From a virus, in the IMG/VR virus record IMGVR_UViG_3300034954_001540, positions 16,865 to 80,864 of that record: a stretch of 64,000 nt of DNA, one strand, 5' to 3'. Of the stretch, positions 9,001 through 63,424 are shown piece by piece (within the stretch, counting starts at the first letter, position 1; every line of letters begins with the position of its first letter). The position numbers and the translations under genes are program-made. The notes beneath the pieces were generated by a model. That model did no database searches, was not told where the DNA came from, and saw nothing but the letters and a program-made list of their open reading frames with translations.

Positions 9001-12000
9001 ATCTCTTGAGACAAATGGTGGGCAGACATTTACAAATGCCACACCTAAACCCACCACGGTGCTTCGCAACTCTACACCTGATGGTGGTATTACTCTGGGT
9101 GGTGACTATAGCAACACCGTTACCCGCACATTTACTAACGGCACAAGCAACATTGCAAGTGGATCTGCTTCTGCAACTGGTATAACCAATGATGAAGATC
9201 TGGTTGGTAGTTGTGTGACGGTGCTTCCTGCTGGCACACCTTCTGATGGTTGCCTCTGGGAGCTTGGTGGTAATGGTGCTGGTTCTTGGCTCGGTATTAG
9301 AGACAGCGGCACATACCTCCGTCTCCGTGCTGGTAATGGTGCCAACTCTTATTCTGGTGGTGCATCTACCTCTACCGACGCAGGTCTTGCACTCCTTGAT
9401 GTCCAAGTCTCTAGTCTCTCAGCATACTTTGATGGTGGTCAGCATGAGATTACTTGGGAAATCAAGATTGGTGGCACAGTTGCCGCTGGAAACGGTCGTG
9501 TCAAACTCTGGATTGATGGTAATGAAATCGGTGATGCATCAACACCTGGATTGAATGTTGGTCTTTATGAAGCAGGTGGATTGTTGGCAGGTGGATCGCA
9601 GGGTGGTTTTGGTAGAGCATCTAGCGATAACAGCGTCCCACAAGGCGAACCTACTGCAGCATGGGCATACGCAACAGGTGACATGTCTTACTACAGATCA
9701 CGTCTGGTTGATCCTAACTACACAGGTCAGGAGTCTGATAGCGTTGCTACTGAGATTGATGATCTGATGGCACTGGTTACAGATGCAATCAGTAATCCTG
9801 GTAACGTTGCAAACCGTGTCAGCATCCTACCCTACATCTGGCCAATTAAGTATACGCCTGAAATTGCAGTTAGAGACACCACTTTGACATTCGACAGTGC
9901 TGCTGCTGAATGGAATCAAACTTGTGCTGAGGTTGCGTCTGGTATTGATACTTTGATGGATATCTATATCGATACGATTGAAAACGCAGCAAATAACAAT
10001 ACTAATCAGTTGAGCTCTATCTCTAGGACAACTAGAGCATCACAATACACAAATACTGTATATCAAGCAGGTACATGTGAAGGACCACAATCCGCCATTG
10101 ATACTCTGTTTGATCTCATGTCAGATACTCTTGGTGCTGGTTTCAATACCGACAAGGTTATTGCCAACATGATCCTCTTTAATAAGGATGCTATTGCACA
10201 GAGAGCATATGATGAGACTCTGGCATATTATGGCACCACTAATATGACAGTGGACTTTACTGCCAATATCGTCAAGGCAATCAGATATGACATGATCACC
10301 AGCGGTAACGCAGGTGGATTTAGACTGGTCCAAGATTGGTTTGATGGTGAGGGCAACTTTATCGCATTCCAAGATGTGTCTCGCACACATCTGATATATG
10401 CAACTACTCGCGTGCGTGAGTATGTCAAGTCTGTCTTGTATCAGTTGACTGAAGATCCTGGTTGGAATACTTACAACACCTATCAGTTGGGTCTGAATGG
10501 TCGTTTGGATTACAACCGTGAGGCATCTGAATTTATTATTGACTCTTCTATCAACCCTGTCGAGTATGCACTAGAAACATCTAAATTCCCAACAGAAGGT
10601 AGTGTTACTTGGGTGCCTAGCAGTGATGTAGAAAACATCAGCACAAAATATGAGTTGGGTTATGACTACAACACTGATCCTGCTCTGGTTACTCTTACTC
10701 CTATTGTCCCAGTTGGTTTCGACCGCGCTGAATATAGAGTTAGAATCAATCGCACCAACTCCTTCCGTCGTGGTGATATCCTCCAGTATATCCCAGCATC
10801 TGAGACTTCTGTCAAAGCATTCGCTGGTCAAACTTACTGGTATGTGATGACTGCTACTGCACAGTGGTTTGAAATTGGTGCCCATTACATGCACGATGGT
10901 AGATTCAGAAAACTTGAAGTTGATACCTCTAATAGTGGTCAACAAATTTTCTCTGTCGTCAGACGTAGTGGTATCTCTAGGAATGCTCCTAAGTATCCTG
11001 CAGATCCTTCACAGACACCTATTCAGGGTGGATTCAACCCCGCAGACGTTATCTACGGCACCACCTCCGAGTCCTCTTCTGAAATTGGTAGCGTTTCGCT
11101 CAACCAAGCAGAAATCAACAGACTCTATACTCGTTACGAGTTGGATAATGTCAGTCAGAATCTGGGTGTATATGAAAACTTCATTAACGGTGAGCAAGTC
11201 ACTGTCCAAGCAAATCCTGCCGTTTCAGGCACGATTCTCCAGACAGGTAAGACAAATCTCGATGGCGAAAACTTCGTTAATCTGATTACTGTCGCAGGCG
11301 TTATTAACGTGGGTGATGTCTTGGTTGGTGCTGATAGTGGCACGACTGCTGAGGTTGCATCCTTCGATTCTCGCATGTTGATCAACGTGGAGAGAGGATC
11401 ATTCGCACAAGGCGACTGGTTGTTTGATAAGGATTCTGCGACTGAAGCATACGCTAACACATACCTCAACAAGTCTGGATCTCTTACAGGTAATGACGGT
11501 GGTCGTATCACGATTGACGTTGAGACCATTGGCGATGCATGGGAAGCTGGTGATGTTATCTACGGTAGCGTCACTGATTACATCCTTGAAGTTAAGGGTC
11601 TCTCTGGCACACAGATTCAACTTAACCAGTATATCCACGGCACCAACGTTTACCAGTTGGAGCTTGGTCCTCCAATTATTGACACGGGTATCTCTGATAC
11701 ATTCCGTGTGGGTGATGAAGTTGTCCTCCTGCAGGGCACCACACGCAAAGATCCTGGATTCTCTGCAACTGTCACAGAATACATTAACGGACTTGATATC
11801 ACTGATAGCAACGATCCTAACTATCAGATTCACCGACTCTTTATCGGTAACTTGCGTGATATTGGCACTGGCGAACCTATCTCCGCTGTCACTCAACCTG
11901 CTAACAACATCGGTAAACTTGACCTTGGATCTAACTTCCCAAGCATTTATGCCAACGTTACATCCTACACCGACACTGGATATACATCCTACGGGCGCGT

Positions 12001-20018: not shown

Positions 20019-23000
20019 ATGCCCCAGAATACCAATCTAAATATTGCTCCTTATTTTGACGACTTCGATAAGGACAAGAATTTCTACCGAGTGCTATTCC
20101 GTCCTGGTTATCCTATTCAGGCGCGTGAATTAACTACTCTACAATCTATTCTACAGAATCAGATTGAATCCATTGGTCAGCACTTCTTCAAAGAAGGTGC
20201 CATGGTTATTCCTGGTCAGGTTGGTTATGACCTGAATGTGCAGGCAATTATTCTGCAACAATCTTTCTTGGGTGTCGATGTTGAAACCTACAGGACTCAA
20301 CTTCACGGTCAGATCGTTGAGGGCATCACGACTGGTGTGAAGGCGAAAGTCTTGTACTCTATCTCTGCTGCAGAATCTGAGAGAGGTTACGTCACCCTAT
20401 ACGTTAAGTATATCGAGTCTGGCGATACAGTTTCTGATACTACTATCAAAGGTTTCCAACCTAACGAGCAGTTGCTTGCTGAAAACGAAATCACTTTCGG
20501 CACTACACTGATTGAAATCGGATCTCCCTTTGCACAACTTCTTCCTGTTGATTCTACTGCAGTTGCATCTGCAGCATACATCAATAATGGTGTGTACTTT
20601 ATTAGAGGTCACTTTGTTGATGTCCAATCAGCAAACCTGATCCTTGAGCAATATAGCAATAATCCTTCTTATAGAATTGGTCTTGAGGTTAGTGAATCTA
20701 TCGTCACTCCAGAAGACGATCCATCACTGAATGACAACGCTGCAGGCACTTCAAACTACTCAGCACCTGGCGGTCACAGATTTAAGATTAAGACCTCTCT
20801 AGTCAAGAAAGCAATCAATGATTCAACTGACAAAAACTTCGTTGAATTGCTACGAATCAACAATAGTAAGGTTGAGCAGTTTGTTGATTCTACTGCATAC
20901 TCTGAGCTTGAGAAGTCTCTTGCACGTCGGACCTACGAAGAGTCTGGTGACTATGTTATCGACACTTTCAGTATTAAGGCAAGAGAGTGTCTGGATGATG
21001 GTTTTAACAACGGCGTCTACACTCCTACTCAGACGACTCAGCAAAACAATACTCCTACAGATGATCTCCTAACATATGAGATCTCACCAGGTAGAGCATA
21101 CGTTAAAGGTTACAGGACTGAATTCCTTACACCTCAATATGTTGATGCTGCTAAACCTAGAGATTTTGCTTGTGTAGAAAACGGCATTATTCACTTTAGA
21201 CTTGGTAACTTTGTTAAGGTATACGATCAGTATGGTTGGCCTAACCTGACTGGTGAGGGTGTGTCTGATGCATATCAAGTTATTGAATTGTATGATGACT
21301 GGAATACTGGTGTATCTAACTCTGTAGTTGGTAACCAAATCGGTCGTGCTCGTGTTGTCCAGATTCAGATCGATCAAGTAAACCAGTATGACATGTGGTT
21401 CTTTGACCCACAGATGTTTACTGCTATCAACTTTGCAGCTGGTAATAACTCTGTTTCTATTGGTGATGTGCTTAGAGGTCGCACCTCTGGTGCTCGTGGT
21501 TTCGTTGCTGACAATGGTAGCGGCACCCACTGTAAACTGGAGCAGGTCTCTGGTGTCTTCCTGAATAACGAAGTTATTGAAAGAGACGGTCGTGTGATCG
21601 GCACCTTGGAAGCAGCACATACCTATAACTTGTCTGATGTCCGTCGTTGTCTTGGTAGAAACTCTAGCAACGTTGTGACATTTGCAGCAAACTGGTTGCT
21701 CAACGATAACGCTTCTATTGAATCTTCTACTGTTACTCTTAGCGGTAGTGGCACTCTTGCTACAGGTTTCAGGACCAAGTTTGCACAGGATCTACGTCCT
21801 GGCGATGTTGTTACTACAACTGCATCTGGTCTGAATGGTAGCAATACTGTAAGAATTAAGAGAGTTGACCCAACTCTGATTGCTACTAACACTGGTAACA
21901 TTGCTACTGGTGGCACACCAATCTTTGACTACCTCAACCAAACTGCTATTGTTGATGCTTCTCTGAAGAAGGGCACTGGTAACGCAGACGGTGAATACGC
22001 TGAGATGGTTAGGATGCGTCCTTTCATCTTCCAGAAAGATTATCAGAATGGTGAGTTGTCGATTGACACACCTCGCACATCGATGAAGTCGATCTCTGAT
22101 GAATCATTCTTTGTCTATAGGACATTTGCTAACAAGACTGTTGTGTCTGGTGGTGTTACTGTGTCTCTGCCTGAATCAGAGCAGTTTGCATCTCTTGACA
22201 ACGAAAACTATGTCTTGACGATTGTTGCTGAGTCTGGATCTTCTTATAGTGTTGGTGACAACCTTGACATTGATAACCTCAATGACCTTGGATCTCTTAC
22301 TGTTACCTTCGGTGCTGATGCACAGTCTATTACCATCTCTGGTTTGACTAACGTCAACACTGTTAAGTTGACCGCTCTGATCTCTAAGAATATCGTCACC
22401 AGAAAGATTAAGACTGCCGCTAAGATGCGTGCATTGAAGGTGACCCGCACAAGAATTAACAATGACCAAACCAAGTATGGTCTGGCATATGGTAACCTCT
22501 ACGGCACCCGTATTGAAGACGAAGAGATTTCATTCGCACTGAATGATGTTTATAAGATTCATGCTGTATATGAATCAGAAGATGACAACGATGCCGAATC
22601 ACCTTATATGGTGTTGTCGGAATCTACCTTCTTCGATAATGGATCAGTTGTTGTTGGTAAGACATCGGGTGCTCGTGGTCGAGTCATTCAGTTTGTTAAC
22701 GCAACACTGAGACTATATTTTGTTGCCTTGAATGAGATTCCATTCATTCCTGGTGAGACCATCGATGGTGTTGATGATGATGGCAATCCTCTGCAGGCAA
22801 TCGTTGATGACTCTGAAGGATCTGTTTCTAAAGGATCTAAAGTTATCACAACTCAATTTGAGTTGGAGTCTGGTCAGAAGGCACACTTCTATGATGTTTG
22901 TAAACTGACTCGTCTTCCTGGTTTCTCTCCCCCAATCCGTAAGATGCTGGTAGTCTTTGACTACTTCTTGCATGAGTCTTCAGGTGACTATTTCTCCTCC

Positions 23001-26000
23001 CAGTCTTATACTGGTATCCTTTATAAGGAGATTCCAAAATATAAACTGGATGGATCGATTAACTACCTCCGTGACCAGATTGACTTCCGTCCTGGCATCG
23101 GTGAATTGGCATCTGGATCAGGTACGATTACTGCACCTTTCTTTGTGAATTGTGCTTCGCTTGATTTTGGATCTAGACAGTTTGATACCTCTGGTGGTGT
23201 TGGTGGATCTACTATCTTCGATATTCCTAAGGTTAACACAGAATTTAGATGTGACTACTGTTTCTATCTTCCTAGAGCAGACAAGTTGTATCTGACACAC
23301 GACAATCAACTGAAGATTGTGAAGGGTGTGTCCTCCGAGGATCTTCCTCATCCTGATAAGATTGACAATGCGATGCTTCTCGCAACGATTGAGATGCGTC
23401 CTTATGTCTATGACGTTGAGCGTGATGTCCTGATCTATCCTGAGATCATCCGTCGCTATACCATGAAGGACATTGGCGATCTGGAGACTAGACTCTCTCA
23501 CGTTGAATACTATACTTCACTTTCTCTGCTGGAAGTACAAGCAGACAATACTAAGACATACGATGACAACGGTTTCGACCGTCTGAAGAATGGTTATGTT
23601 GTGGATGACTTCACCGACCACACTGTTGGTGACGTGCTCAACATTGACTATAAGTGCTCTATGGACTTCAAAGAGGGTCACCTCCGTCCTTCGCACTACA
23701 CTACTAACGTGCCTCTGCAGATCAACATGGCTGCATCCAGCAACGTCGTTAAGACTGCTGGAAACATGGTGATGCTTCCTTATGAAGATCTTGCAGTTAT
23801 CACACAACCTTATGCATCTAGGACTGAGAATGTTAACCCATTCAACGTCTTTACCTTCATCGGTCGTATCGACCTAACACCTGCATCTGACGACTGGATT
23901 GATATTGAGCGTCTTCCTGCTCGTGTTGAAAACGTTGAAGGTGACTTCTCTGCTGTTGCTAGAGACCTTCAGATTGACCAGAATGGTTTTGCTCCTATCC
24001 AATGGGGTGGTTGGCAAACTAACTGGACTGGTGAATCACTGCAGTCTACTTCTAGATTCTCTAACAGATCTGGTAGTTTCTCTGCTGGTGGTCGTAGACT
24101 CGGTAGATTGGGTCATGGTCAGGGTCGTCAGCCTCTCTTCTTGCATGAGAGACGCACCTATCGTGTTGTTAACAACCAAGCACGTCAAGGCGTGAGAACT
24201 CGCGTTACGCCCAAGATTGATAGAAAGTCTTTGGGTGATAGCATCCTGTCACAAACAGCAATCCCTTGGATTAGATCCAGAAATATCGGTTTCAACATTG
24301 ACCGTCTTAAGCCTCGCACAAGAATGTATTTCTTCTTCGATGGCGTTAACGTGACTGGTTATGTGACACCTAAAGTTATTGAGCTTACTAAGTCTTCTAC
24401 TTCTGATCCTAACTCCAACGAGACACCTTTCGTTGTTGGTGAGACCGTAGTGGGTCAGACCTCTGGCGCAAGACTTAAGGTTGCCGCTGCCAACGATGGT
24501 TATAAGACTGACCCTTATGGTGTTGGCGATGGTGCTCTTGCAGAATCTTATGCATCGCAGACTAGCTTCCTTAACATTGACATCACTGCAATGGCAGAGA
24601 CAGTCAACCCTAACTTCTACGGTAACGTTAACGTGGGTGAAGTCCTTCTTGGACTGACCTCTGGTGCTCGTGCTGTTGTTAGAGATCGTCGTCTGCTGTC
24701 TGATAACATTGGTAACCTGCAGGGCACTCTATTCATTCCTTCTCCTAAGAATGATTCTAACCCACGTTGGGCAACTGGCACAAGGACAGTTAGAGTTACG
24801 ACTTCTGATGTGAATGATCGTACACCTGGCAACGTGGACTCCTCTGCTGATGCTACTTACTCGGCAAGCGGCACATTGCAGACAGTTAGAGAAAATATCC
24901 TTGCTGTCCGTAACGCTGAAATCGTCCGTGACACGGTTAACGATGAGAGGACTGTTATTACAACTAGGACTGAGCAACGTCAGATTGGTTGGTATGACCC
25001 TCTTGCACAATCCTTCATTGTTGACGAAGAAGGTGGTAGTTATCTGACTGGTGTTGATGTCTTCTTCAGGACTAAGGATGCCAACATTCCTATCTCTATT
25101 CAGATCAGGACCATGGAGAATGGTTATCCTACTAAGGATATTCTTCCTTTCTCTGATACTACTATCGATCCTGACACTGTTGAGTTGTCGGAAAACGCAA
25201 GTATTCCTACTAGATTTACATTCAGATCTCCTGTTTATATTAAGTCAAACATTGAATATTGTTTCGTCCTTCTGTCTGACTCCAACGAATATAACGTTTG
25301 GATCTCCAGAATGGGTGACATCGATGTATCTGGCACAAGGACTATCTCTGAGCAACCATATGCTGGTGTGCTCTTCAAGTCACAAAACGCATCTACATGG
25401 ACTGCTGACCAGTATGAAGATTTGAAGTTTACCATGTATCGTGCTGAGTTTACTCAGAATCTGGGCACCGCGCTGTTTAACAACGCTGAGCTTGGTAAGG
25501 GTAACGGTGGTATTCACAGACTGATTGAGAATCCAATCCAGACTCTGAAACCTAAGCAAACTCTCACACTCCCTGTTGGTGGTAACTATACATTCACAGT
25601 TGGTGCAAGAATCGTCCAGACACCTTCTGGTGCAGAAGGCACGATTACTGAATTCGATGCTGTGTCTGATCCTGAGACTATCACCATTACTGATATTGAA
25701 GGTATCTGGTCATCTGGTTTCTTGGATGCTAACAATAATCCTTTCCAAGGTATCGCCTCATCTCAATCTGTCGCCACGATTGTATTGTCTGCAATCTTCA
25801 ACGGCACCTTTGAGATTGGTGATGTGGTCAGTGGATCTACATCTTCTGCAACTGGTGTTGTCACAGCATATGACGTTGGCACTCAGACTCTGACACTTAA
25901 CTACATTACTAGAGCATTCGATGTTTCGGATACTCTGTCTGAGCCAGGCGGCACATCTGCAACGATTACCAGCATTAACTATAGCGGTGACTCCTACGAC

Positions 26001-27326
26001 GCATATCCTACTGCTGCTCCTTCTTATCCTAATGATGACAAGGAAGTGTTGGTTTATCACAGAAACCACGGTATGCACCAACGTAGTAACAACGTTGAGG
26101 TTGAGGGCATTATCTCTGAAGTGCCTCCTACCACACTAACAACTACTTTGACTGCTGGCGCTACTTCGATTCAGGTCAACGATGCATCTCAATTCCACAC
26201 CATTATTGGTGGTGCTCCTATCGGTAACCTCAATCAGGGTTATCTGATGATCGATGATGAGATCATTCAATACTCTGCAATCTCTGCTAACGGGCAGGTG
26301 ATCACAGTTGCTACCTCTGGTAGAGGTAATAACGGCACTGCTGATGTTGAGCACGCCTCTGGCGCAGTTGTGAAGTGTTACAACCTTGATGGTATTCCTC
26401 TAACAGAAATCAATAAGGTCCACACTAGCATCTCCTGCCCATGGTTGGATACCTACATGCTGCACATTGATCATGTTGCAACTAATGGTATTCGTGGCGG
26501 CGGCACAGATGTGTATGCTTCTCAGAATGTCCAGTTTGAAACCATCACACCTACTGTGTCTACGATGGTCTTACCTGACACTCAGATTAGTGCTCGCTTG
26601 AATACTACCACTGCTACATCTGTCGGAGACGGATCTACTGTGGTTGATCAAAACTCTTTCATCAACAACGGCACTTATGTGGACATTGTGTTGAATGAGC
26701 AAAACCAGTTTACTGCTCCTCAGATGGTTGCATCTAAGATCAACGAGCAAAACAAACTGGATGGTAACAAGTCTCTTACCATGTCGATCATGCTTGAGAC
26801 TGACAGGACAAACCTTTCTCCTGCTATTGACCTTGACCGTGTGTCACTGATTACAACATCTAACCGCGTGAATATGTGGCCAGGTGGACAATCAACTTAT
26901 GGTCAGCAATCTCAGATTGATAGAGATCAAGATGTTTCTACTCTTGCTATCGGTGATCAAAATGATGCTGTCTATATTACACGTCTCGCCCGCTTGGGTA
27001 GAGAAGCACGCTCACTGAAGATTGACTTCCAAGTCACCCGTCACCCTGCTACCGAGCTTCGTATTTACTACAAGGCATTCAAGGTTGGCGACGCGACCGA
27101 TCCTAATACTATTGGTTGGACACAAATGGGTCTACCCACTTCTAACCAAAACTTGGGTGAAGCATATGACACGACTCCTACAGAAGAGTATCTCTGGAAG
27201 GATTATACATATGAAGCAAGGGGACTTAACTTCAACGCCTTCCAAGTGAAGATCGTGATGAGATCTAAGAATCAGGCTCGAGTACCACTTATAGCTGACT
27301 TAAGGTCTATTGCTCTTGCAACCTAA
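20019..27326 (+). CDS. Large VrlC-like virion structural protein
   Basis: N-terminal MPQNTNLN..PYFDDFD..KNFYRVLFRPG..IQARELT.LQS; WYDPLAQSF and LFKSQN.STW motifs typical of cyanomyovirus VrlC-like proteins. Confidence 0.85.
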   Translation: MPQNTNLNIAPYFDDFDKDKNFYRVLFRPGYPIQARELTTLQSILQNQIESIGQHFFKEGAMVIPGQVGYDLNVQAIILQQSFLGVDVETYRTQLHGQIVEGITTGVKAKVLYSISAAESERGYVTLYVKYIESGDTVSDTTIKGFQPNEQLLAENEITFGTTLIEIGSPFAQLLPVDSTAVASAAYINNGVYFIRGHFVDVQSANLILEQYSNNPSYRIGLEVSESIVTPEDDPSLNDNAAGTSNYSAPGGHRFKIKTSLVKKAINDSTDKNFVELLRINNSKVEQFVDSTAYSELEKSLARRTYEESGDYVIDTFSIKARECLDDGFNNGVYTPTQTTQQNNTPTDDLLTYEISPGRAYVKGYRTEFLTPQYVDAAKPRDFACVENGIIHFRLGNFVKVYDQYGWPNLTGEGVSDAYQVIELYDDWNTGVSNSVVGNQIGRARVVQIQIDQVNQYDMWFFDPQMFTAINFAAGNNSVSIGDVLRGRTSGARGFVADNGSGTHCKLEQVSGVFLNNEVIERDGRVIGTLEAAHTYNLSDVRRCLGRNSSNVVTFAANWLLNDNASIESSTVTLSGSGTLATGFRTKFAQDLRPGDVVTTTASGLNGSNTVRIKRVDPTLIATNTGNIATGGTPIFDYLNQTAIVDASLKKGTGNADGEYAEMVRMRPFIFQKDYQNGELSIDTPRTSMKSISDESFFVYRTFANKTVVSGGVTVSLPESEQFASLDNENYVLTIVAESGSSYSVGDNLDIDNLNDLGSLTVTFGADAQSITISGLTNVNTVKLTALISKNIVTRKIKTAAKMRALKVTRTRINNDQTKYGLAYGNLYGTRIEDEEISFALNDVYKIHAVYESEDDNDAESPYMVLSESTFFDNGSVVVGKTSGARGRVIQFVNATLRLYFVALNEIPFIPGETIDGVDDDGNPLQAIVDDSEGSVSKGSKVITTQFELESGQKAHFYDVCKLTRLPGFSPPIRKMLVVFDYFLHESSGDYFSSQSYTGILYKEIPKYKLDGSINYLRDQIDFRPGIGELASGSGTITAPFFVNCASLDFGSRQFDTSGGVGGSTIFDIPKVNTEFRCDYCFYLPRADKLYLTHDNQLKIVKGVSSEDLPHPDKIDNAMLLATIEMRPYVYDVERDVLIYPEIIRRYTMKDIGDLETRLSHVEYYTSLSLLEVQADNTKTYDDNGFDRLKNGYVVDDFTDHTVGDVLNIDYKCSMDFKEGHLRPSHYTTNVPLQINMAASSNVVKTAGNMVMLPYEDLAVITQPYASRTENVNPFNVFTFIGRIDLTPASDDWIDIERLPARVENVEGDFSAVARDLQIDQNGFAPIQWGGWQTNWTGESLQSTSRFSNRSGSFSAGGRRLGRLGHGQGRQPLFLHERRTYRVVNNQARQGVRTRVTPKIDRKSLGDSILSQTAIPWIRSRNIGFNIDRLKPRTRMYFFFDGVNVTGYVTPKVIELTKSSTSDPNSNETPFVVGETVVGQTSGARLKVAAANDGYKTDPYGVGDGALAESYASQTSFLNIDITAMAETVNPNFYGNVNVGEVLLGLTSGARAVVRDRRLLSDNIGNLQGTLFIPSPKNDSNPRWATGTRTVRVTTSDVNDRTPGNVDSSADATYSASGTLQTVRENILAVRNAEIVRDTVNDERTVITTRTEQRQIGWYDPLAQSFIVDEEGGSYLTGVDVFFRTKDANIPISIQIRTMENGYPTKDILPFSDTTIDPDTVELSENASIPTRFTFRSPVYIKSNIEYCFVLLSDSNEYNVWISRMGDIDVSGTRTISEQPYAGVLFKSQNASTWTADQYEDLKFTMYRAEFTQNLGTALFNNAELGKGNGGIHRLIENPIQTLKPKQTLTLPVGGNYTFTVGARIVQTPSGAEGTITEFDAVSDPETITITDIEGIWSSGFLDANNNPFQGIASSQSVATIVLSAIFNGTFEIGDVVSGSTSSATGVVTAYDVGTQTLTLNYITRAFDVSDTLSEPGGTSATITSINYSGDSYDAYPTAAPSYPNDDKEVLVYHRNHGMHQRSNNVEVEGIISEVPPTTLTTTLTAGATSIQVNDASQFHTIIGGAPIGNLNQGYLMIDDEIIQYSAISANGQVITVATSGRGNNGTADVEHASGAVVKCYNLDGIPLTEINKVHTSISCPWLDTYMLHIDHVATNGIRGGGTDVYASQNVQFETITPTVSTMVLPDTQISARLNTTTATSVGDGSTVVDQNSFINNGTYVDIVLNEQNQFTAPQMVASKINEQNKLDGNKSLTMSIMLETDRTNLSPAIDLDRVSLITTSNRVNMWPGGQSTYGQQSQIDRDQDVSTLAIGDQNDAVYITRLARLGREARSLKIDFQVTRHPATELRIYYKAFKVGDATDPNTIGWTQMGLPTSNQNLGEAYDTTPTEEYLWKDYTYEARGLNFNAFQVKIVMRSKNQARVPLIADLRSIALAT

Positions 27327-27365
27327 CACGGTTGATTATAATAATTATTCTTTGATATGTCAAGC
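27319..27365 (-). promoter_or_regulatory. Minus-strand consensus sigma70 promoter (TTGACA-N17-TATAAT) with a CAACC-N6-GGTTG inverted repeat at the start site
   Basis: + strand TGTCAA at 27358-27363 and ATTATA at 27335-27340, 17 nt apart; inverted repeat at 27319-27334; similar element at 62848-62895. Confidence 0.7.
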
Positions 27366-27626
27366 GAAGATTACATCAAACCCTTCAAAGAAGACCTAAT
27401 CCCTGTCGAGGGCAGGGAAGGTTGGTTTCGAGATCCTGACAGTAATGCAATCGTAAATTGCAATCAGTCGGAGTATGACAATTATATGGCAGCATATAAG
27501 CGTCGCGAAGCTAAAGAAAAGAAGATGACCACTTTACAAGATGAGGTATCTGAGTTAAAATCAGATATAGGTGAAATCAAAAACTTACTTAAATCATTAC
27601 TACACGGAGACAACAATGCCAGCTGA
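27357..27626 (+). CDS. Small conserved T4-like hypothetical protein (C-terminal coiled coil)
   Basis: VEG...RDP.SNAIVN motif plus coiled-coil tail, commonly found next to VrlC-like genes. Confidence 0.75.
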   Translation: MSSEDYIKPFKEDLIPVEGREGWFRDPDSNAIVNCNQSEYDNYMAAYKRREAKEKKMTTLQDEVSELKSDIGEIKNLLKSLLHGDNNAS

Positions 27627-27861
27627 TGTGACTGAAACTGCATCTCAAGAAGAGCTTCTTGAGCAATTCAAAACTCGTTATCAGAATCTCTTGAAAGAGA
27701 ATCGCGAGTTGTCAGAAAAAATTAAGAGTAACGAGGCAACTGCTCTTAAACTTCTCGGTGCTATTGAGACTCTGGAATATCTCAATCCACCTGCTGCCGA
27801 AGAAGAAATCGAGCCTCGACCAGATGGGACTATCGATCCCGACGATCTGGATAAGACTTGA
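27616..27861 (+). CDS. Small acidic coiled-coil hypothetical protein
   Basis: GGAG RBS before the ATG at 27616; ends just before a terminator. Confidence 0.7.
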   Translation: MPADVTETASQEELLEQFKTRYQNLLKENRELSEKIKSNEATALKLLGAIETLEYLNPPAAEEEIEPRPDGTIDPDDLDKT

Positions 27862-27889
27862 CCCCTTGCCCCCGTTAAGGGGGTTTTTT
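27861..27889 (+). terminator. Rho-independent terminator
   Basis: CCCCC-GTTAA-GGGGG stem-loop followed by T6. Confidence 0.75.
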
Positions 27890-27894
27890 CGTGA

Positions 27895-27902
27895 CATAAA
27901 TA
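27895..27902 (+). promoter_or_regulatory. T4-like late promoter (CATAAATA)
   Basis: Directly after the terminator, upstream of the tail fibre gene. Confidence 0.7.
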
Positions 27903-27943
27903 AGTCAGACAGACTAACTGTTGTGCTAGGATCCTTTTAAGCA

Positions 27944-30900
27944 ATGGCAAATAGAATTCAATTAAGACGTGACGGTGCTCAGCAGTGGGCAAACGTCAAC
28001 CCTATTCTCGCTCAAGGTGAGTTAGGTATCGAAATTGATACTTCGCGTATCAAGATCGGTGATGGCGTCACCGCATGGAACTCTCTGAAGTATGAGAGAC
28101 CGATCGAGACCGAATCAAACACCGCTAACACGTTGGTGAAACGTGATGCTGACGGTAACTTTGAGGCGGGTGCGATTACTGCTTCGTTGGTGGGTAACGC
28201 TGCCACGGCAACACGACTGGCAAACGCAAGACAGATCGCTCTGGGTGGCGACATGTCTGGTGCAGGTACTTTTGATGGATCCTCTAACCTCACCATTACT
28301 GCCGAATTGAATTATGTGGTGGCACTTCCCCACTACGATGAGAATGACCTAGCAGCAACAGGACAGTATACCCGTATCACAGTTGACTCTCGTGGTCGTA
28401 TTGTGGATGCTGATAACCCAACATCACTGGGTGCATTCGGTATTACTGACGCACAACCTTTGGATACTGATCTAACCTCACTTGCTAACATGGCAGGTTT
28501 TGGTCTTATCTCTAGACAGTCTGAAGGCACACTGGTCAACCGCAGTATTACTGGTGGTAGTGGTCGTATCATTGTACAGAATGGTAACGCTCAGTCTTCC
28601 AACCCATTTATTGACTTAGCAGATACCACAGTTGTGGTGGGTAAGTATAATACCCTCAACTCAATGGATCCTCTGGTCAATCCTTTGATCAGTGCTACAA
28701 CTGGTGAGCAGACTGTTAACACTGTCAACATTCAAGTTGACAGATATGGTCGTTTAGTTTATGCTAATACTTCCCCTATCGCTACAGCAACGGAGGGCGC
28801 GAAGTCTGGCACATCTTTCACCACTTACGATAACGCTACTGTCTATCCTAGATTTTCAAAGGTTATTGCTTCTAACGGTCGCTGCTACCAAGCGGCTATT
28901 AGGGATATCCCTGCAGGACTCGGAGAGCCATCACATAACATCCAAAATGGTGATGCAGACGATCAAGGTGGATGGAGAGATCTGGGTACTGATGGCATCG
29001 AGCAAAAAGGTCTGGCGAGTTTCGACCAAGAAGACTTCGATGTAGATGCTAACGGTCATGTAACAATCGCTGCAAACGCTATTGAGAATTCTCAACTACA
29101 ATCGTTGGGTCGTCTCATGTTTACTGACCAAAATGCTACGGAGACTTTTGAGCTTGACCCCGAAAGGACAACTGATAATGCTTATCATGGCATTACCAAG
29201 CTTAATCACATTAACATTAACAACAGAACTGGCGGTAGCGTATTCCGTATCGTTGGTTACGATACTTCTGAATATCCTTTCCAACCTGGCATTCTGGATC
29301 AGGGCAATTCCTATCCTGCTGTTAATGCTGACGACGCTAACGGTAACGGTAGTGCCACCAGTGGATCATCTCTCACTGGCGCTGTTGACATTAACCTCGA
29401 CACTACCATCGCTGGTAACATTACTCTTGATGTTACAAAAGCCGACCAGTTTATTAAGCGAACGTCGGGTAATCTAGAGATTGCTCTAGAAGTTAATGAA
29501 GCGAATAATCGCTCTATGGACATCAACGTCACCAATGCTGGTGGTGGAGATGCGACTTTCAACCTGACTGCTGATCAGGACATCACAATCAACGTGACTG
29601 ATGTTGACCACAGAGTCAACATTGAGGACTTCCATATTCAGGATAACGTCCTCTCAACTACAAACTCCACGATGATCCTTGATCCCAATGATGACGATGA
29701 TGCCACTGGCGTCGTCAGAGTCCGTGGTGATCTTACTGTTGATGGCACAACCACAACAGTTAACTCAACTGTGGTGACTATCCAAGACCCCATCATGACG
29801 CTGGGTGGTGAGGATACTCTTACAACAGATGACAATAAGGACCGTGGTATCGAATTTAGATACTATGATAGCCAAGAGAGATTTGGTTTCTATGGGTGGG
29901 ACGAAGATTACGCGGACGCTAACATATGGTCTGGCACTGGCGGGTATCGCTTCCTCTACAACGCGACTAACTCAAGCGAAGTTTATTCTGGCACTGACGC
30001 TCCTATCATTGCTGGTAACCTCCGACTAACTACAAATACTTCTTCTACTTGGAAGACACCTACAACTGGCACCTTGGTGGTGACTGGTGGCACAGGTATC
30101 TCTGAGAATCTTAACGTCGGTGGCACGACTCACCTGAATGGTAACGTTGAGATTGATGGCACAGTTGACATCGATGCCAACTTCGCTGTTAGAAACAATA
30201 CTACTGACAAGTTTACTATCGAGAGTGCAACTGGTAACACAGTTATCGAAGGCACACTAGATATCCAACTTGAAACAGAGATTACAGATAACCTGATTAT
30301 CTCTGCAGATAATAAAGAATTCATTATCCGCACTGCTGGTAATGTCAATAAGTTTACTGTTGATACTGATAACGGTAACACTGAAATTCAGGGCACAGTC
30401 CACGTCATCAATGCCGTTGACTTCGATTCAACTCTTAACGTTGATGACGATGTTACATTCAACGCCAACTTTGATCTGGATGGCACTGCGCTCTTCCATA
30501 ACGATATTACTCTTGATACCACTGGTAAGTATTTCACTATTACCAATGGCAGTAGTCAAACATTCCGAGTCCTAAGCACTAATGGAAACACTGACATCGA
30601 AGGTAGTCTTAATGTTGGTGGTGTCAACACTTTTGAGCGCACTAACAATATCACTGTTGCTACGACTGACTCAGACATCACTCTGAGCAGCGGCGGCAAT
30701 GCCACCTTTGCTGGTGGTGTCAACATGGATAAGGATCTCCGTGTTGGTGGTGACATCTATCTGGCAGACCGTCTGGTCGTCAAAGATGCTGGCACAGCAC
30801 GCACACGTCCTTCTCTGCTCAACAACGTTGATGTCTTGTATCGCACCTATATGGGTGGTGGCACAGCACACAACGCATCCTTTGCAGATGATGCTGATGC

Positions 30901-58625: not shown

Positions 58626-58652
58626 ATATTTGTTGAGTTGATCGCTCAACAC

Positions 58653-58827
58653 GGGAGTGACCGAATAACCCTGTTGGAATTTGGCGGGGTAAGGTAAATG
58701 ATTAGAGGTGGTGCTCGCTGCTAGGTCCGTCCTAGAGAACCCCAACCAAGGGAATCATTGTTGTTATGCCCAAAATTTCGCACTAGCGATTCCCATAACA
58801 TGAGGGTAAAATGTAATCCCTCCTCCC
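58653..58827 (+). ncRNA. Structured ncRNA resembling the manA RNA motif
   Basis: GGGAG/CTCCC closing stem; internal stems AATGATT/AATCATT, CTAGG/CCTAG, TGTTATG/CATAACA, TCGC/GCGA, GAGGG/CCCTC. GGGAGTGAC.GAATAA and GGTGGTGC blocks match my recollection of manA. Confidence 0.65.
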
Positions 58828-58854
58828 ACACCCACCCCTTGGGTGTATTTTTTT
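58828..58854 (+). terminator. Rho-independent terminator ending the ncRNA
   Basis: ACACCCA-CCCCT-TGGGTGT stem-loop followed by A-T7. Confidence 0.75.
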
Positions 58855-58890
58855 GTCTATGTGTAAAGGCTTTGTAAAAAAGCAACAAAT

Positions 58891-58931
58891 GTATATTACG
58901 ATACCAAAACAATTATAAGTAGTAATAGAAT
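58891..58931 (+). promoter_or_regulatory. Putative NtcA-type promoter (GTA-N8-TAC-N21-TAGAAT)
   Basis: GTATATTACGATAC at 58891-58904; TAN3T box at 58926-58931. Confidence 0.45.
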
Positions 58932-58998
58932 TATGAGAGGTGGAGACATGAAATGAAAGTTTTTTCATACATCATGGAGTCACATATGGAGGTCAGTT

Positions 58999-59172
58999 AT
59001 GCACAACATAACTTCGCGAAATCAACTCGACGAGTGGCGTCATTTTGAAGATACGATCGATGAGATGGACATCGAGAATCAGAAACTTAATGACTACTAC
59101 GAATGTTTAATTGATTGCGATATCCAACACAATACCAGCTGCAAGAGATATTGCAGGAGGATTCTTATGTGA
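58999..59172 (+). CDS. Small twin-Cx3C protein (57 aa, not in the ORF track)
   Basis: GGAGGT RBS; MHNITSRNQL...DYYECLIDCDIQHNTSCKRYCRRILM; followed by its own terminator. Confidence 0.75.
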   Translation: MHNITSRNQLDEWRHFEDTIDEMDIENQKLNDYYECLIDCDIQHNTSCKRYCRRILM

Positions 59173-59197
59173 GAAACCCCTAACACTACTCGTTTCT

Positions 59198-59222
59198 AGC
59201 GACCCTCAGGGGTCGCTTTTTT
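59198..59222 (+). terminator. Rho-independent terminator
   Basis: AGCGACCC-TCAG-GGGTCGCT stem-loop followed by a T-run. Confidence 0.85.
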
Positions 59223-59254
59223 GTTAAATAATTACTATACTTACTGGTAATACT

Positions 59255-59419
59255 ATGGGTCGTAGCATTATGCGAAAGGTTGATCTGGAGGCTAGGGTTT
59301 ACAAATTGAAGACAGAGCTGTATAATGGGACCTACTGGGATAAGAATGGGGACTGGCACGACGGTGCCCATCACACTCTCAACAAAATCCTCGACATCCT
59401 ACAAGAGTATGCTCAATGA
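59255..59419 (+). CDS. Small hypothetical protein (54 aa, not in the ORF track)
   Basis: Late-like TTAAATA at 59224; W.DGAH..LN.ILD.L.EY motif; ATGA overlap downstream. Confidence 0.65.
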   Translation: MGRSIMRKVDLEARVYKLKTELYNGTYWDKNGDWHDGAHHTLNKILDILQEYAQ

Positions 59420-59598
59420 GTATTAAAGATTTAGACTTCATCGACAATTTCTTCATGGACGAAGAGGACCTCAAACAACTCTCACAGAAAGCAAAGGAAA
59501 TGAAAAACCGAATACTTATGGAAGAGCCTTGTCCAATCTATGAAGGCGACGCAGAAGACTGGGAAGACTTCTGGTATAACGAGGACACAGATGACTAA
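59416..59598 (+). CDS. Small acidic hypothetical protein
   Basis: Tiles with its neighbours. Confidence 0.6.
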   Translation: MSIKDLDFIDNFFMDEEDLKQLSQKAKEMKNRILMEEPCPIYEGDAEDWEDFWYNEDTDD

Positions 59599-59788
59599 TG
59601 GTACTCCTATTACTAAAGAAGAAGTCAAGGAGATGATTGATGATGCCATACGACAGCATAATCGTAACGCTTCAATTATCAGTTTTTGTGTTGGTTGGGT
59701 TGTTCTTGCACTTTTTGCTGAGGGTCTGCTTCGACTTATTGGAGTAATACCGCCCCTGCTGCCATGGCTACAAATCACATTGAAGTAA
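59591..59788 (+). CDS. Small membrane protein
   Basis: GAGG RBS; TM helix. Confidence 0.65.
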   Translation: MTNGTPITKEEVKEMIDDAIRQHNRNASIISFCVGWVVLALFAEGLLRLIGVIPPLLPWLQITLK

Positions 59789-60942: not shown

Positions 60943-62399
60943 TAACTATCGAAAAGAAAAACGAAGTTTTTCTGAAGGTTGAAGGTGAGCAACATATCCA
61001 TAAAGAATTAAGCGAGCACTTCCAGTTTGAAGTGCCTGGCGCTAAATTCATGCCGCAATTTAAGAGGAGAGTATGGGACGGTAAGATCAGATTGTATTCT
61101 CCTGGCACAGGAGAGATCTATGTCGGACTATATGATTACCTAACACAGTATCTTGACCAGAAAGGATACGAGTATACTATCAAAGATAGTCAATACTTTG
61201 GTCTACCCAATGACGAGGAGGAATATGTCTCACCTGAAAGCGTTGCGTCTTTTGTTAGATCTCTGGGACTCCCATTTAAGATTCGAGACTACCAACTCAA
61301 AGCACTTTTCACGGCAATTAAGCAGCGTCGCAAGTTACTACTATCCCCGACGGGATCGGGAAAATCCCTAATCATCTATGGTCTGGTCCGCTGGCATCTC
61401 AAGGCGGATAGAGAGATCCTAATCATTGTACCTACAGTCTCTCTGGTCTCGCAGTTGACGCAAGACTTCAAAGACTATGGTTGGAAGGCAGATGCTTATG
61501 TCCATCAGATCATGGGTGGGCAAGAGAGATATGTAGAAGCGCCTGTTGTTATCTCTACATGGCAGAGCATCTACAAAGAGCCCAAGAAATTCTTTGAAAG
61601 GTTTGATGTAATCATCGGTGACGAAGCACACCTCTACAAGGCAAAGTCACTGACAGGTATTCTTAATAAGTGCCACGACGCAAAGTATAGAGTCGGGCTG
61701 ACAGGCACGTTGGATGGGATGTACAGTCATCAGCTTGTGCTGGAAGGTTTATTTGGACGTTGCGACAAGGTGACGACCACTGTTGACCTGATGAAGAAGG
61801 GTCAACTGACACCTCTGAAGGTGCGTGTGCTTCTGATGCAGCATGGTCATGTGCCATTCGATACTTATCAACAAGAGATGGAGTATATAGTATCACATCC
61901 TACAAGAAATAATTTTATTTGTAACTTAGCAGAAGATCTAGACGGTAATACACTCATCCTATTCAACTATATCGAGAAGCATGGTGACCCTTTATGGGAG
62001 ATGCTAAATAATAAGGTGAGTAAAGATCGAAAGATCTTTTTTATTCATGGCGGTGTCGATGCTGTTGAAAGAGAAGAGGCTCGCAAGATATGTGAGCAGG
62101 AAAAGAATGCGATTATCCTCGCATCCTATGGCACATTCTCTACAGGCATCAACATTCGTAACCTACATAATGTAATCTTTGCAAGTCCATCTAAATCAAG
62201 AGTAAGAAACCTCCAGTCCATTGGACGTGTCTTGCGTAAAGGAGACAATAAAGCCCAAGCAGTGTTGTATGACATTGCCGATGATTGCTCCCGAGGTAGC
62301 AGACACAACTACACTCTCCGTCACCTCATAGAACGATTGAAGATCTATGATGAAGAGAAATTTGATTATGAAGTAACTAAGGTAAACCTACGAAAATGA
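60939..62399 (+). CDS. uvsW: RNA-DNA/DNA helicase UvsW
   Basis: WDGKIRL, SPTGSGKS, DEAH and QSIGRVLR SF2 motifs. Confidence 0.95.
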   Translation: MITIEKKNEVFLKVEGEQHIHKELSEHFQFEVPGAKFMPQFKRRVWDGKIRLYSPGTGEIYVGLYDYLTQYLDQKGYEYTIKDSQYFGLPNDEEEYVSPESVASFVRSLGLPFKIRDYQLKALFTAIKQRRKLLLSPTGSGKSLIIYGLVRWHLKADREILIIVPTVSLVSQLTQDFKDYGWKADAYVHQIMGGQERYVEAPVVISTWQSIYKEPKKFFERFDVIIGDEAHLYKAKSLTGILNKCHDAKYRVGLTGTLDGMYSHQLVLEGLFGRCDKVTTTVDLMKKGQLTPLKVRVLLMQHGHVPFDTYQQEMEYIVSHPTRNNFICNLAEDLDGNTLILFNYIEKHGDPLWEMLNNKVSKDRKIFFIHGGVDAVEREEARKICEQEKNAIILASYGTFSTGINIRNLHNVIFASPSKSRVRNLQSIGRVLRKGDNKAQAVLYDIADDCSRGSRHNYTLRHLIERLKIYDEEKFDYEVTKVNLRK

Positions 62400-62839
62400 T
62401 TAACTACATCCGTCACGACAACGAATTCTACGGCATTGTTAAGTTGGTGTCTGGTGAAGAAGTAATGGGATCAATGATCGCCACGAATGAAGACAACTGC
62501 ACAATGGTATATGTGTCTGACCCTCTCACTCCTACCCTAACTCCTATCGAAAAAGATGGTGAGATGGGTATTGCTGCGGGATTTACTAAATGGATGATGT
62601 GGTCAGATGAAGAGTTTTATATAATCCAAGAACCTGACATCGTAACGATTGCTCCAATGTCTACAGAAGCAATCATGATGTATAAGATGTGGTGGAGAAA
62701 AGCAGGTAACGGTGGGGAGGATAAGGATCCTGGTGTGCCCATGAATGAAAACATGGGTCTTGTGGGAAAGGTGTCAGAGATGAGAAAGAAACTAGAGGCT
62801 CAGTGGAAGAAACCACCTAAAGAAAAAGACTCTAAGTAG
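62396..62839 (+). CDS. Conserved hypothetical protein (possible Sm-like fold)
   Basis: KLVSGEE motif; usual position between uvsW and g55. Confidence 0.75.
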   Translation: MINYIRHDNEFYGIVKLVSGEEVMGSMIATNEDNCTMVYVSDPLTPTLTPIEKDGEMGIAAGFTKWMMWSDEEFYIIQEPDIVTIAPMSTEAIMMYKMWWRKAGNGGEDKDPGVPMNENMGLVGKVSEMRKKLEAQWKKPPKEKDSK

Positions 62840-62847
62840 TTCCTTTC

Positions 62848-62895
62848 CAACCCTTACATGGTTGAGTATAATTATTATTCTTAACTGTGTCAAGC
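62848..62895 (-). promoter_or_regulatory. Minus-strand sigma70 promoter (TTGACA-N17-TATACT) with a CAACC-N7-GGTTG inverted repeat
   Basis: + strand TGTCAA at 62888-62893 and AGTATA at 62865-62870; similar to 27319-27365. Confidence 0.65.
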
Positions 62896-62924
62896 TTGAC
62901 CTTTCAAGCATTATCTTTTATAAT
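62896..62924 (+). promoter_or_regulatory. sigma70 promoter for g55 (TTGACC-N17-TATAAT)
   Basis: -35 at 62896-62901, -10 at 62919-62924. Confidence 0.8.
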
Positions 62925-62947: not shown

Positions 62948-63424
62948 ATGACTGTAATGCCTCCTAAGAAAAAACAACATTACGTTGATAACAAAAAGTT
63001 TCTTAGCGAGATCGTTAAGTATCGAGAAGCAGTTGAGACTGCCAAGCTACAAGATAGACCTAAACCTAGGATCACTCACTACCTAGGGGATTGCTTCTTG
63101 AAGATTGCCACCCACCTGTCATATAGACCTAACTTTATTAACTACATGTATAAGGAGGACATGATCTCCGATGGTGTAGAGAATTGTGTCCAATACATCG
63201 ACAACTTCGATCCTGCCAAGAGTAAAAACCCATTTGCATATTTCACACAGATCGTGTATTATGCGTTTCTGCGACGAATCGCCAAAGAAAAGCGTCAGAT
63301 GGACATCCGCGACAAACTCATCGAGAAGAATGGTTACGATCAAGTCTTCCACTCAGATGAGAATGATAACCATGCGGACATGAATTCTATCAAGAGTCGT
63401 ATCGAAACCAATATGCGTAACTAA
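62948..63424 (+). CDS. g55: Late-transcription sigma factor gp55
   Basis: HYVDNK.F, NF.NY...EDMI.DG.ENC and NPFAYFTQI...AF.RRI.KEK motifs. Confidence 0.95.
   Translation: MTVMPPKKKQHYVDNKKFLSEIVKYREAVETAKLQDRPKPRITHYLGDCFLKIATHLSYRPNFINYMYKEDMISDGVENCVQYIDNFDPAKSKNPFAYFTQIVYYAFLRRIAKEKRQMDIRDKLIEKNGYDQVFHSDENDNHADMNSIKSRIETNMRN

Follow-up and report, generated by a model that had tools for sequence, protein, structure and literature searches.

A conserved host-type promoter cassette in orphan, backward-facing copies in a T4-like cyanophage, one of them beside the late sigma factor gene gp55

Why would a phage whose long genes all run in one direction carry a perfect host-type promoter sequence pointing the other way, with no gene ahead of it? 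The question is raised by a stretch of 64,000 nucleotides (nt), hereafter the window, which is part of an 80.9-kb IMG/VR contig (IMGVR_UViG_3300034954_001540) estimated to be 45% complete. The source phage is a marine T4-like cyanomyovirus whose nearest cultured relatives are Synechococcus and Prochlorococcus myoviruses, at ~65–75% nucleotide identity, and all long open reading frames (ORFs) of the window lie on the + strand. Two minus-strand elements are at issue: site 1, at the end of a giant DUF4815 (VrlC-like) structural gene, and site 2 (62848–62895), upstream of gp55, which encodes the late transcription sigma factor. Judged by their sequences and those of their relatives, both sites are orphan, backward-facing copies of a conserved host-type promoter cassette.

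At site 1, the −35 hexamer TTGACA (27358–27363) and the −10 hexamer TATAAT (27335–27340) lie 17 nt apart on the minus strand. This perfect sequence, which an earlier note on this DNA had reported behind the VrlC-like gene, is the sole 12/12 match to the sigma70 consensus on either strand of the window; a 12/12 match was seen in 5 of 100 dinucleotide shuffles of the window, and 11/12 matches occur at only five sites, both strands counted. Site 2, with TTGACA at 62888–62893 and TATACT at 62865–62870, again 17 nt apart on the minus strand, scores 11/12, and the two sites are the two best minus-strand promoter matches in the window. Site 2 is a true second copy of site 1: as the earlier note had claimed, 30 of 36 nt are identical (27330–27365 versus 62860–62895; manual count) and the palindrome is likewise present at both, and a 23-nt core common to both sites occurs twice against 0.01 expected and is found nowhere else in the 80.9-kb contig.

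Directly after the −10 hexamer, each site has an inverted repeat, CAACC-TAACAC-GGTTG (N6) at 27319–27334 and CAACC-CTTACAT-GGTTG (N7) at 62848–62864. Aligned in the promoter direction, the cassette reads TTGACA-N17-TAnA(A/C)T-(0-1 nt)-AACC-n-TGT-n(2-4)-GGTT(C/G)A(G/A)AA, and the G of the conserved TGT falls 7–8 nt beyond the −10, where transcription usually starts, at 27327 and 62857 in the window. The box therefore spans the predicted start, as had been proposed; at site 1 the expected start G is 27327, 8 nt after the −10, and not 27328, and the loop of the repeat contains the stop codon (27324–27326) of the DUF4815 gene.

A single sequence cannot separate the two strands, because ATTATAAT is its own reverse complement, and the overlapping + strand TATAAT already pointed out at 27337–27342 is indeed present, with a counterpart at 62867–62872. 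It could accordingly be argued that the element serves the + genes, either as a TATAAT-only promoter or as a protein-binding site, and that its minus-strand likeness is incidental. Wherever the element occurs, it stands in an intergenic gap, immediately ahead of a + strand gene. In this clade, the + strand of both copies offers TATAAT together with weak −35-like hexamers (TTGCAA and TTTCCA); promoters of marine picocyanobacteria often have no clear −35. The comparison of relatives decided between the strands. From 80 loci fetched by gp55 protein similarity alone, we obtained 56 distinct upstream regions, 32 of which contain the backward module. On the minus strand, TTGACA is found in 32/32 of these regions and a spacer of exactly 17 nt in 32/32, the spacers comprising 22 different sequences; the −10 is TATACT, TACACT, TATAAT or TACAAT, with T1, A2, A4 and T6 invariant and position 3 variable. 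The + strand TATAAT, in contrast, occurs in only 23/32, being missing from nine gp55 copies as well as from most of a wider family found by an IMG/VR motif scan, where ATTGTA, AGTGTA or ATTCTA stands in its place. The + strand consensus of that family is (G/C)AACC-yCyACAwr-GGTT-ATTGTA-N17-TGTCAAG, which on the minus strand is TTGACA-N17-TACAAT; the scan set was filtered on TA...T and was not used for the claim of invariance.

The site-1 locus gave the same picture. Among 38 loci fetched by the 89-amino-acid (aa) protein encoded immediately to the right of site 1, the 21 closest (down to ~55% protein identity) carry the module and the 17 more distant ones do not. Seventeen distinct site-1 copies, taken from these loci and four from the motif scan, show a mean pairwise identity of 100% in the −35, 90% in the −10 and 92% in the box, against 64% in the spacer; their ungapped coding flank (60 nt) has 36–45% pairwise identity, figures that are lowered by indels. 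The −35, which at site 1 overlaps codons 1–3 of the 89-aa gene, is identical in 17/17 orthologous sequences, and the −10 position reads TATAAT, TATACT, TAAACT or TACAAT. In one orthologue (L189), ATTGTA replaces the + strand TATAAT, and the minus-strand TACAAT is kept. The + strand alternative is further weakened by the separate + strand consensus promoter that gp55 has in every relative, and by the leader of only ~7 nt that a start at site 1 would leave. We therefore regard a + strand function as very unlikely, and on these alignments the conservation footprint is that of a sigma70-type promoter on the minus strand, not of a + strand element. Conservation in relatives and activity confined to the + strand were two of the points on which the earlier note had suggested that its reading could fail; the module is conserved in 32/56 gp55-upstream regions and 21/38 site-1 loci, and the comparison favours the minus strand.

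How widespread is the copy at gp55? The module lies antisense between the Sm-like gene and gp55 in S-PM2, P-SSM4, Syn19, ACG-2014a, S-SZBM1, P-SSM7 and Syn9, which belong to different genera, and direct inspection of gp55-upstream regions found it in every cultured phage examined. A BLAST search of cultured phages with the 56-nt element returned S-SZBM1 only, the query being too short and AT-rich for BLAST. In the Syn9 record (NC_008296.2), TTGACA-N17-TAGAAT followed by AACAC-TGT-CAG-GGTTG stands backward upstream of gp55 at 123689–123733, with a predicted minus-strand start near 123698, 7 nt beyond the −10 (123705–123710). In the gp55 regions without the module (L071-L073, L088-L120), the Sm-like gene extends as far as the gp55 promoter; the module may have been lost in particular lineages, or these may be arranged in another way.

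In the window, 108 nt separate a 147-aa Sm-like gene (62396–62839, +) from gp55 (62948–63424, +), and site 2 is within this gap; uvsW is one gene further to the left. The sense gp55 promoter, TTGACC-N17-TATAAT at 62896–62924 (+), is back to back with the antisense promoter sequence, and in 56/56 distinct upstream regions gp55 has a + strand consensus promoter of its own, with a score of 10–12/12. The two −35 hexamers are arranged in one of three registers: abutting as the near-palindrome TGTCAAGCTTGAC(A/C), as in the window; overlapping, with TTGTCA as the + strand −35; or with the + strand −35 located 11 nt to the left of the backward one. Because both polymerases would bind back to back on the same 15–20 bp, competition between them is plausible at gp55.

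Two hairpins were noted in this region. In the window, the hairpin GCTTGACCTTTCAAGC with a T-rich run (62894–62909, +), flagged as terminator-like, overlaps the −35 of the gp55 promoter and could attenuate read-through where the two promoters abut. In the gp55-upstream copies of L146, L237, L172 and L158, the backward −35 (TGTCAAG on the + strand) is enclosed in the loop of a GGGG/CCCC hairpin, behind which the + strand is T-rich, an arrangement that resembles the terminators of PeSL cassettes and is absent from the window.

The cassette was also found facing genes. Complete genomes searched for the −10 plus the box contain two or three copies each. A relaxed whole-genome scan of Syn19 returned exactly three box copies, each with an 11–12/12 promoter, one backward at gp55 and two facing genes; our own contig has two. 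One sense copy lies between CP12 and cpeT (Syn19 17321), and another in a block of small ORFs before gp25 (T4-GC 383/640/389; P-SSM7 46140, P-SSM4 51148, Syn19 50809). Since the cassette faces genes at these two other conserved places, the direction from TTGACA to AACC is its working direction, and the minus strand of sites 1 and 2 thus offers a −35, a −10 at 17 nt and gene-facing use elsewhere, as expected of a sigma70-type promoter. The gp55-side copy, being widespread, is probably older than the baseplate copy, and by its distribution site 1 is a clade-specific extra copy. A general class of early cyanophage promoters was considered and rejected because the copies are too few: S-SZBM1 has one strict copy, Syn19 three and our contig two. 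In L166, one sense copy precedes an ORF at 11034–11468 (+), whose product, read by eye, may be a GIY-YIG homing endonuclease.

The box itself has constant and variable parts. The arms AAC(C)/(G)GTT are always present, with a length of 3–5 bp, and the distance between them is variable (6–9 nt). A fifth pair is formed differently by lineage: C..G here, A..T in P-SSM4 and an inner G..C in another group. Conservation runs asymmetrically past the repeat, to GGTTCAGAAA. The earlier note had regarded the palindrome as operator-like; the ever-present arms leave a dimeric repressor site possible, but the variable gap and the asymmetric conservation do not indicate one. As free RNA, the stem would have −3.9 to −5.4 kcal/mol and no U-tract; the repeat cannot fold in the RNA, because the predicted start falls inside it. 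By eye, with no formal test, we saw no convincing match in the element to NtcA (GTA-N8-TAC), HLR1/RpaB direct repeats or a LexA-type box.

What, then, do the backward copies transcribe? No credible minus-strand ORF or minigene was found downstream of site 1 or site 2, in agreement with the earlier note; an ATG-TAA inside the site-2 box was considered as a minigene and dismissed, as it would fall at or before the predicted start. No minus-strand terminator was found after either site, and no Rfam family matched at either of them, the only match in the window being a manA RNA. When 17 diverse antisense transcripts were aligned over 170 nt, RNAalifold predicted 0 conserved pairs, and only GGTT was invariant. 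With no conserved ORF, terminator or fold downstream, selection appears to keep the promoter and the first 15–20 transcribed bases and not the body of the RNA. The same observations (no terminator, 0 pairs in RNAalifold, no Rfam match) speak against a discrete cis-antisense or small RNA gene.

A strong orphan promoter without a gene, present in one to three copies per genome, with one copy neighbouring uvsY-uvsW and another within the tail-fibre/baseplate block, calls to mind the T4 replication origins oriF (uvsY) and oriG (gene 34). Each of these consists of a promoter and a downstream unwinding element, with the promoter transcript serving as primer, and is shut off by UvsW (Kreuzer and Brister 2010, PMC3016281). 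By analogy, the gene-less transcript could persist as an R-loop and prime leading-strand synthesis until UvsW, encoded next door, removed it. The likeness to oriF and oriG would extend to a promoter transcript serving a non-coding purpose, and it includes the small number of copies and the positions near recombination genes and the tail-fibre region, and the first 20–30 nt of the predicted antisense RNA are purine-rich. However, no AT-rich unwinding element was found: the 50–200 nt downstream are 56–62% A+T, against a window mean of 55% (standard deviation 5) and below its 95th percentile of 64%. The downstream DNA is ordinary coding sequence with no conserved feature, the same cassette drives normal genes elsewhere, and the module is absent from many relatives. 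Cyanomyoviruses also differ from T4 in having no motA or asiA. We consider an origin of this type quite unlikely.

Could the backward copies simply be tolerated? A mobile or duplicated promoter cassette may drive cpeT and small early ORFs, and its antisense copies may be recombination products that are tolerated and not selected, much as the PeSL (promoter-early stem-loop) cassettes of RB49 and phi1 (Arbiol et al. 2010, PMC2839356; Comeau et al. 2014, PMC4122927). Those cassettes, the described elements most like ours, are documented recombination substrates of T4-type phages. Both kinds combine, in an intergenic position, a strong, sigma70-like promoter with a short inverted repeat, and one PeSL subclass has this repeat between the −10 and the start site; PeSLs are likewise repeated within a genome in similar copies that have plausibly spread by recombination. 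In addition, the sense copies of the cyanophage cassette look like ordinary promoter-plus-leader units, 24 of the 56 gp55-upstream regions are devoid of the module, and the clade-specific site 1 has an AT-rich spacer similar to the one at gp55 in the same genome, as would be expected if it had arisen by duplication or gene conversion. The differences from PeSLs are nevertheless considerable. There are ~50 PeSLs per genome, in hyperplastic regions before ORFans, facing genes and with stable G/C-rich terminating stems, whereas the cyanophage cassette has 2–3 copies, a 3–5 bp stem without a U-tract and contexts conserved across genera, and its best-conserved copy is backward and without a gene. 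The reported density of PeSLs in cyanophage S-PM2 is low. We therefore rejected PeSL membership: the intergenic strong promoter is there, but not the terminating stem, the high copy number, the location in hyperplastic regions or the sense orientation. As to tolerance, at least seven cultured phages from different genera retain the antisense gp55 copy, its −35, spacing and −10 invariant while the spacer turned over, and the site-1 copy is almost intact even where amino-acid identity in the flanking genes has dropped to ~55%. Since a neutral promoter would have decayed, the antisense copies do not appear neutral, and we consider a tolerated duplicate unlikely.

Cis-antisense RNAs offer a further parallel, and lambda OOP and the T4 'anti-late' RNA are among those known from phages. 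S-PM2 has one known antisense RNA, CfrI (Millard et al. 2010, summarised in PMC2984593), and antisense starts have been mapped in AR9 (PMC5312081). These resemble the predicted transcripts in that host RNA polymerase transcribes the non-coding strand across a phage gene end, with a presumed regulatory role; they differ in being defined RNAs that have been seen experimentally, whereas our cassette is known from sequence and has neither a terminator nor a conserved structure. Its recognition elements are the same as those of the predicted or mapped host-type promoters of T4-like cyanophages summarised in PMC2984593, which are described as serving genes. T4-like cyanophages do not have MotA/AsiA or the Alt/Mod enzymes of T4, and according to the review literature cyanomyoviruses transcribe their pre-late genes from host-like promoters, presumably with unmodified host polymerase (PMC2984593).

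From the observed sequence, conservation, strand, copy number and contexts of the cassette, we infer its transcription, timing and effect as follows. Host sigma–RNA polymerase very probably starts on the minus strand at both sites. The polymerase, unmodified, would recognize the near-consensus sigma70/SigA-type CTTGACA-N17-TAnA(A/C)T, followed at once by the AACC-nTGT-n(2-4)-GGTT(C/G)A box, and would start at the G of TGT, 7–8 nt after the −10, on a strand without genes. Site 1 would direct transcription into the giant DUF4815 baseplate gene from its 3′ end, and site 2 away from gp55 into the Sm-like gene and uvsW. The earlier note had envisaged a device directed specifically against late structural genes; this does not hold, as the widespread copy, upstream of gp55, aims at the Sm-like gene and uvsW. 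Because nothing is conserved downstream of the box, the selected function is most likely the firing itself. At site 2, polymerases fired head-on would stop or reduce + strand transcription running on from the uvsY-uvsW-Sm-like unit into gp55, with added competition for the shared −35 region; at site 1, they would interfere with transcription across the DUF4815 gene. Pairing of antisense with sense RNA would come as a side effect or contribute in addition. The activity would follow the availability of host sigma–RNA polymerase, before the late gp55 programme, and would end when that programme takes over. Whether interference, insulation or antisense control is the role of the backward cassette is, in our judgement, evenly balanced, and it is with middling confidence that we prefer, as the best explanation overall, a real host-RNA-polymerase promoter with antisense firing itself as the function.

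Several observations weigh against this preferred explanation. The absence of the module from 24/56 gp55-upstream regions indicates that it is dispensable in some lineages. The gp55 and site-1 samples are the only lightly biased ones, yet both required the box and a score of ≥9/12. In this clade, the + strand TATAAT of both copies makes bidirectional or + strand activity possible. Site 1 has no + strand sigma70 partner, which makes promoter competition impossible there, and any effect of the cassette at this site must therefore come from antisense transcription itself. Finally, 24 public RNA-labelled runs contain parts of the phage, all of them as unstranded Logan contigs; over 25800–28800, contigs of three runs bridge site 1 and one contig ends at 27342, and these contigs are silent on strand, start and level.

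The surroundings of the two sites were also annotated. Site 1 occupies the 30-nt gap between the 2435-aa DUF4815 gene (20019–27326, +), whose 3′ end would be the first target of the site-1 antisense transcript, and the gene of the 89-aa virion structural protein (PHROG 473; 27357–27626, +; ATG at 27357). To the right of the latter are a second small ORF, an intrinsic terminator, the late-promoter-like CATAAATA and a 2334-aa Mtd_N tail-fibre-like gene. The terminator is strong (GC stem and T-run) and is followed at once by the T4/cyanophage late-promoter-like sequence, both within 27862–27901 (+), which indicates that the two small ORFs after site 1 end a transcription unit; the late-promoter-like box stands 43 nt ahead of the Mtd_N gene. 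At the other locus, the 147-aa gene (T4-GC139), which would be the first target of the site-2 transcript, is annotated as 'methylamine utilization' in GenBank relatives and in PHROG 471 and has a Pfam Sm_like domain (PF16243, E 1.3e-23); its product may be an Sm/Hfq-like RNA-binding protein. The manA RNA (Rfam RF01745, 121 bits) is full-length and lies at 58631–58832 (+), in the gap after the major-capsid region, and short minus-strand ORF calls near it (58721–59778) are probably spurious.

A more specific proposal, which we put forward tentatively and consider doubtful, is that the orphan cassette acts as a timing device that would hold back gp55 and, in this clade, also the giant baseplate genes, until a box-binding factor released the block. 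With strong, head-on initiation by the host sigma–RNA polymerase, read-through would be blocked, and the shared promoter region would be occupied through the −35 that is shared with, or abuts, the gp55 promoter. A putative phage or host factor would recognize AACC-nTGT-GGTT at all two or three copies. If so, the box would define a small regulon linking cpeT and early ORFs, in the sense orientation, with antisense control of the late switch.

Host-type promoters of cyanophages are of a known kind; what appears new in the sequences, and of moderate interest, is the orphan backward orientation beside gp55 together with the conserved start-site box. We found no mention of a backward gp55 promoter or of the start-site box in the literature, in a search that lay outside the transcription start-site map of Syn9 reportedly made by Doron et al. 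in 2016. If the backward copies were only tolerated duplicate promoters, they would be an ordinary annotation detail. The timing of the late-transcription switch in T4-like cyanophages is not understood, however, and a gene-less host-type promoter that diverges from the late sigma factor's own promoter, as predicted in Syn9, S-PM2, P-SSM4 and P-SSM7, is a testable candidate for part of that switch, being short, present in two or three copies per genome and located in phages that are now open to engineering.

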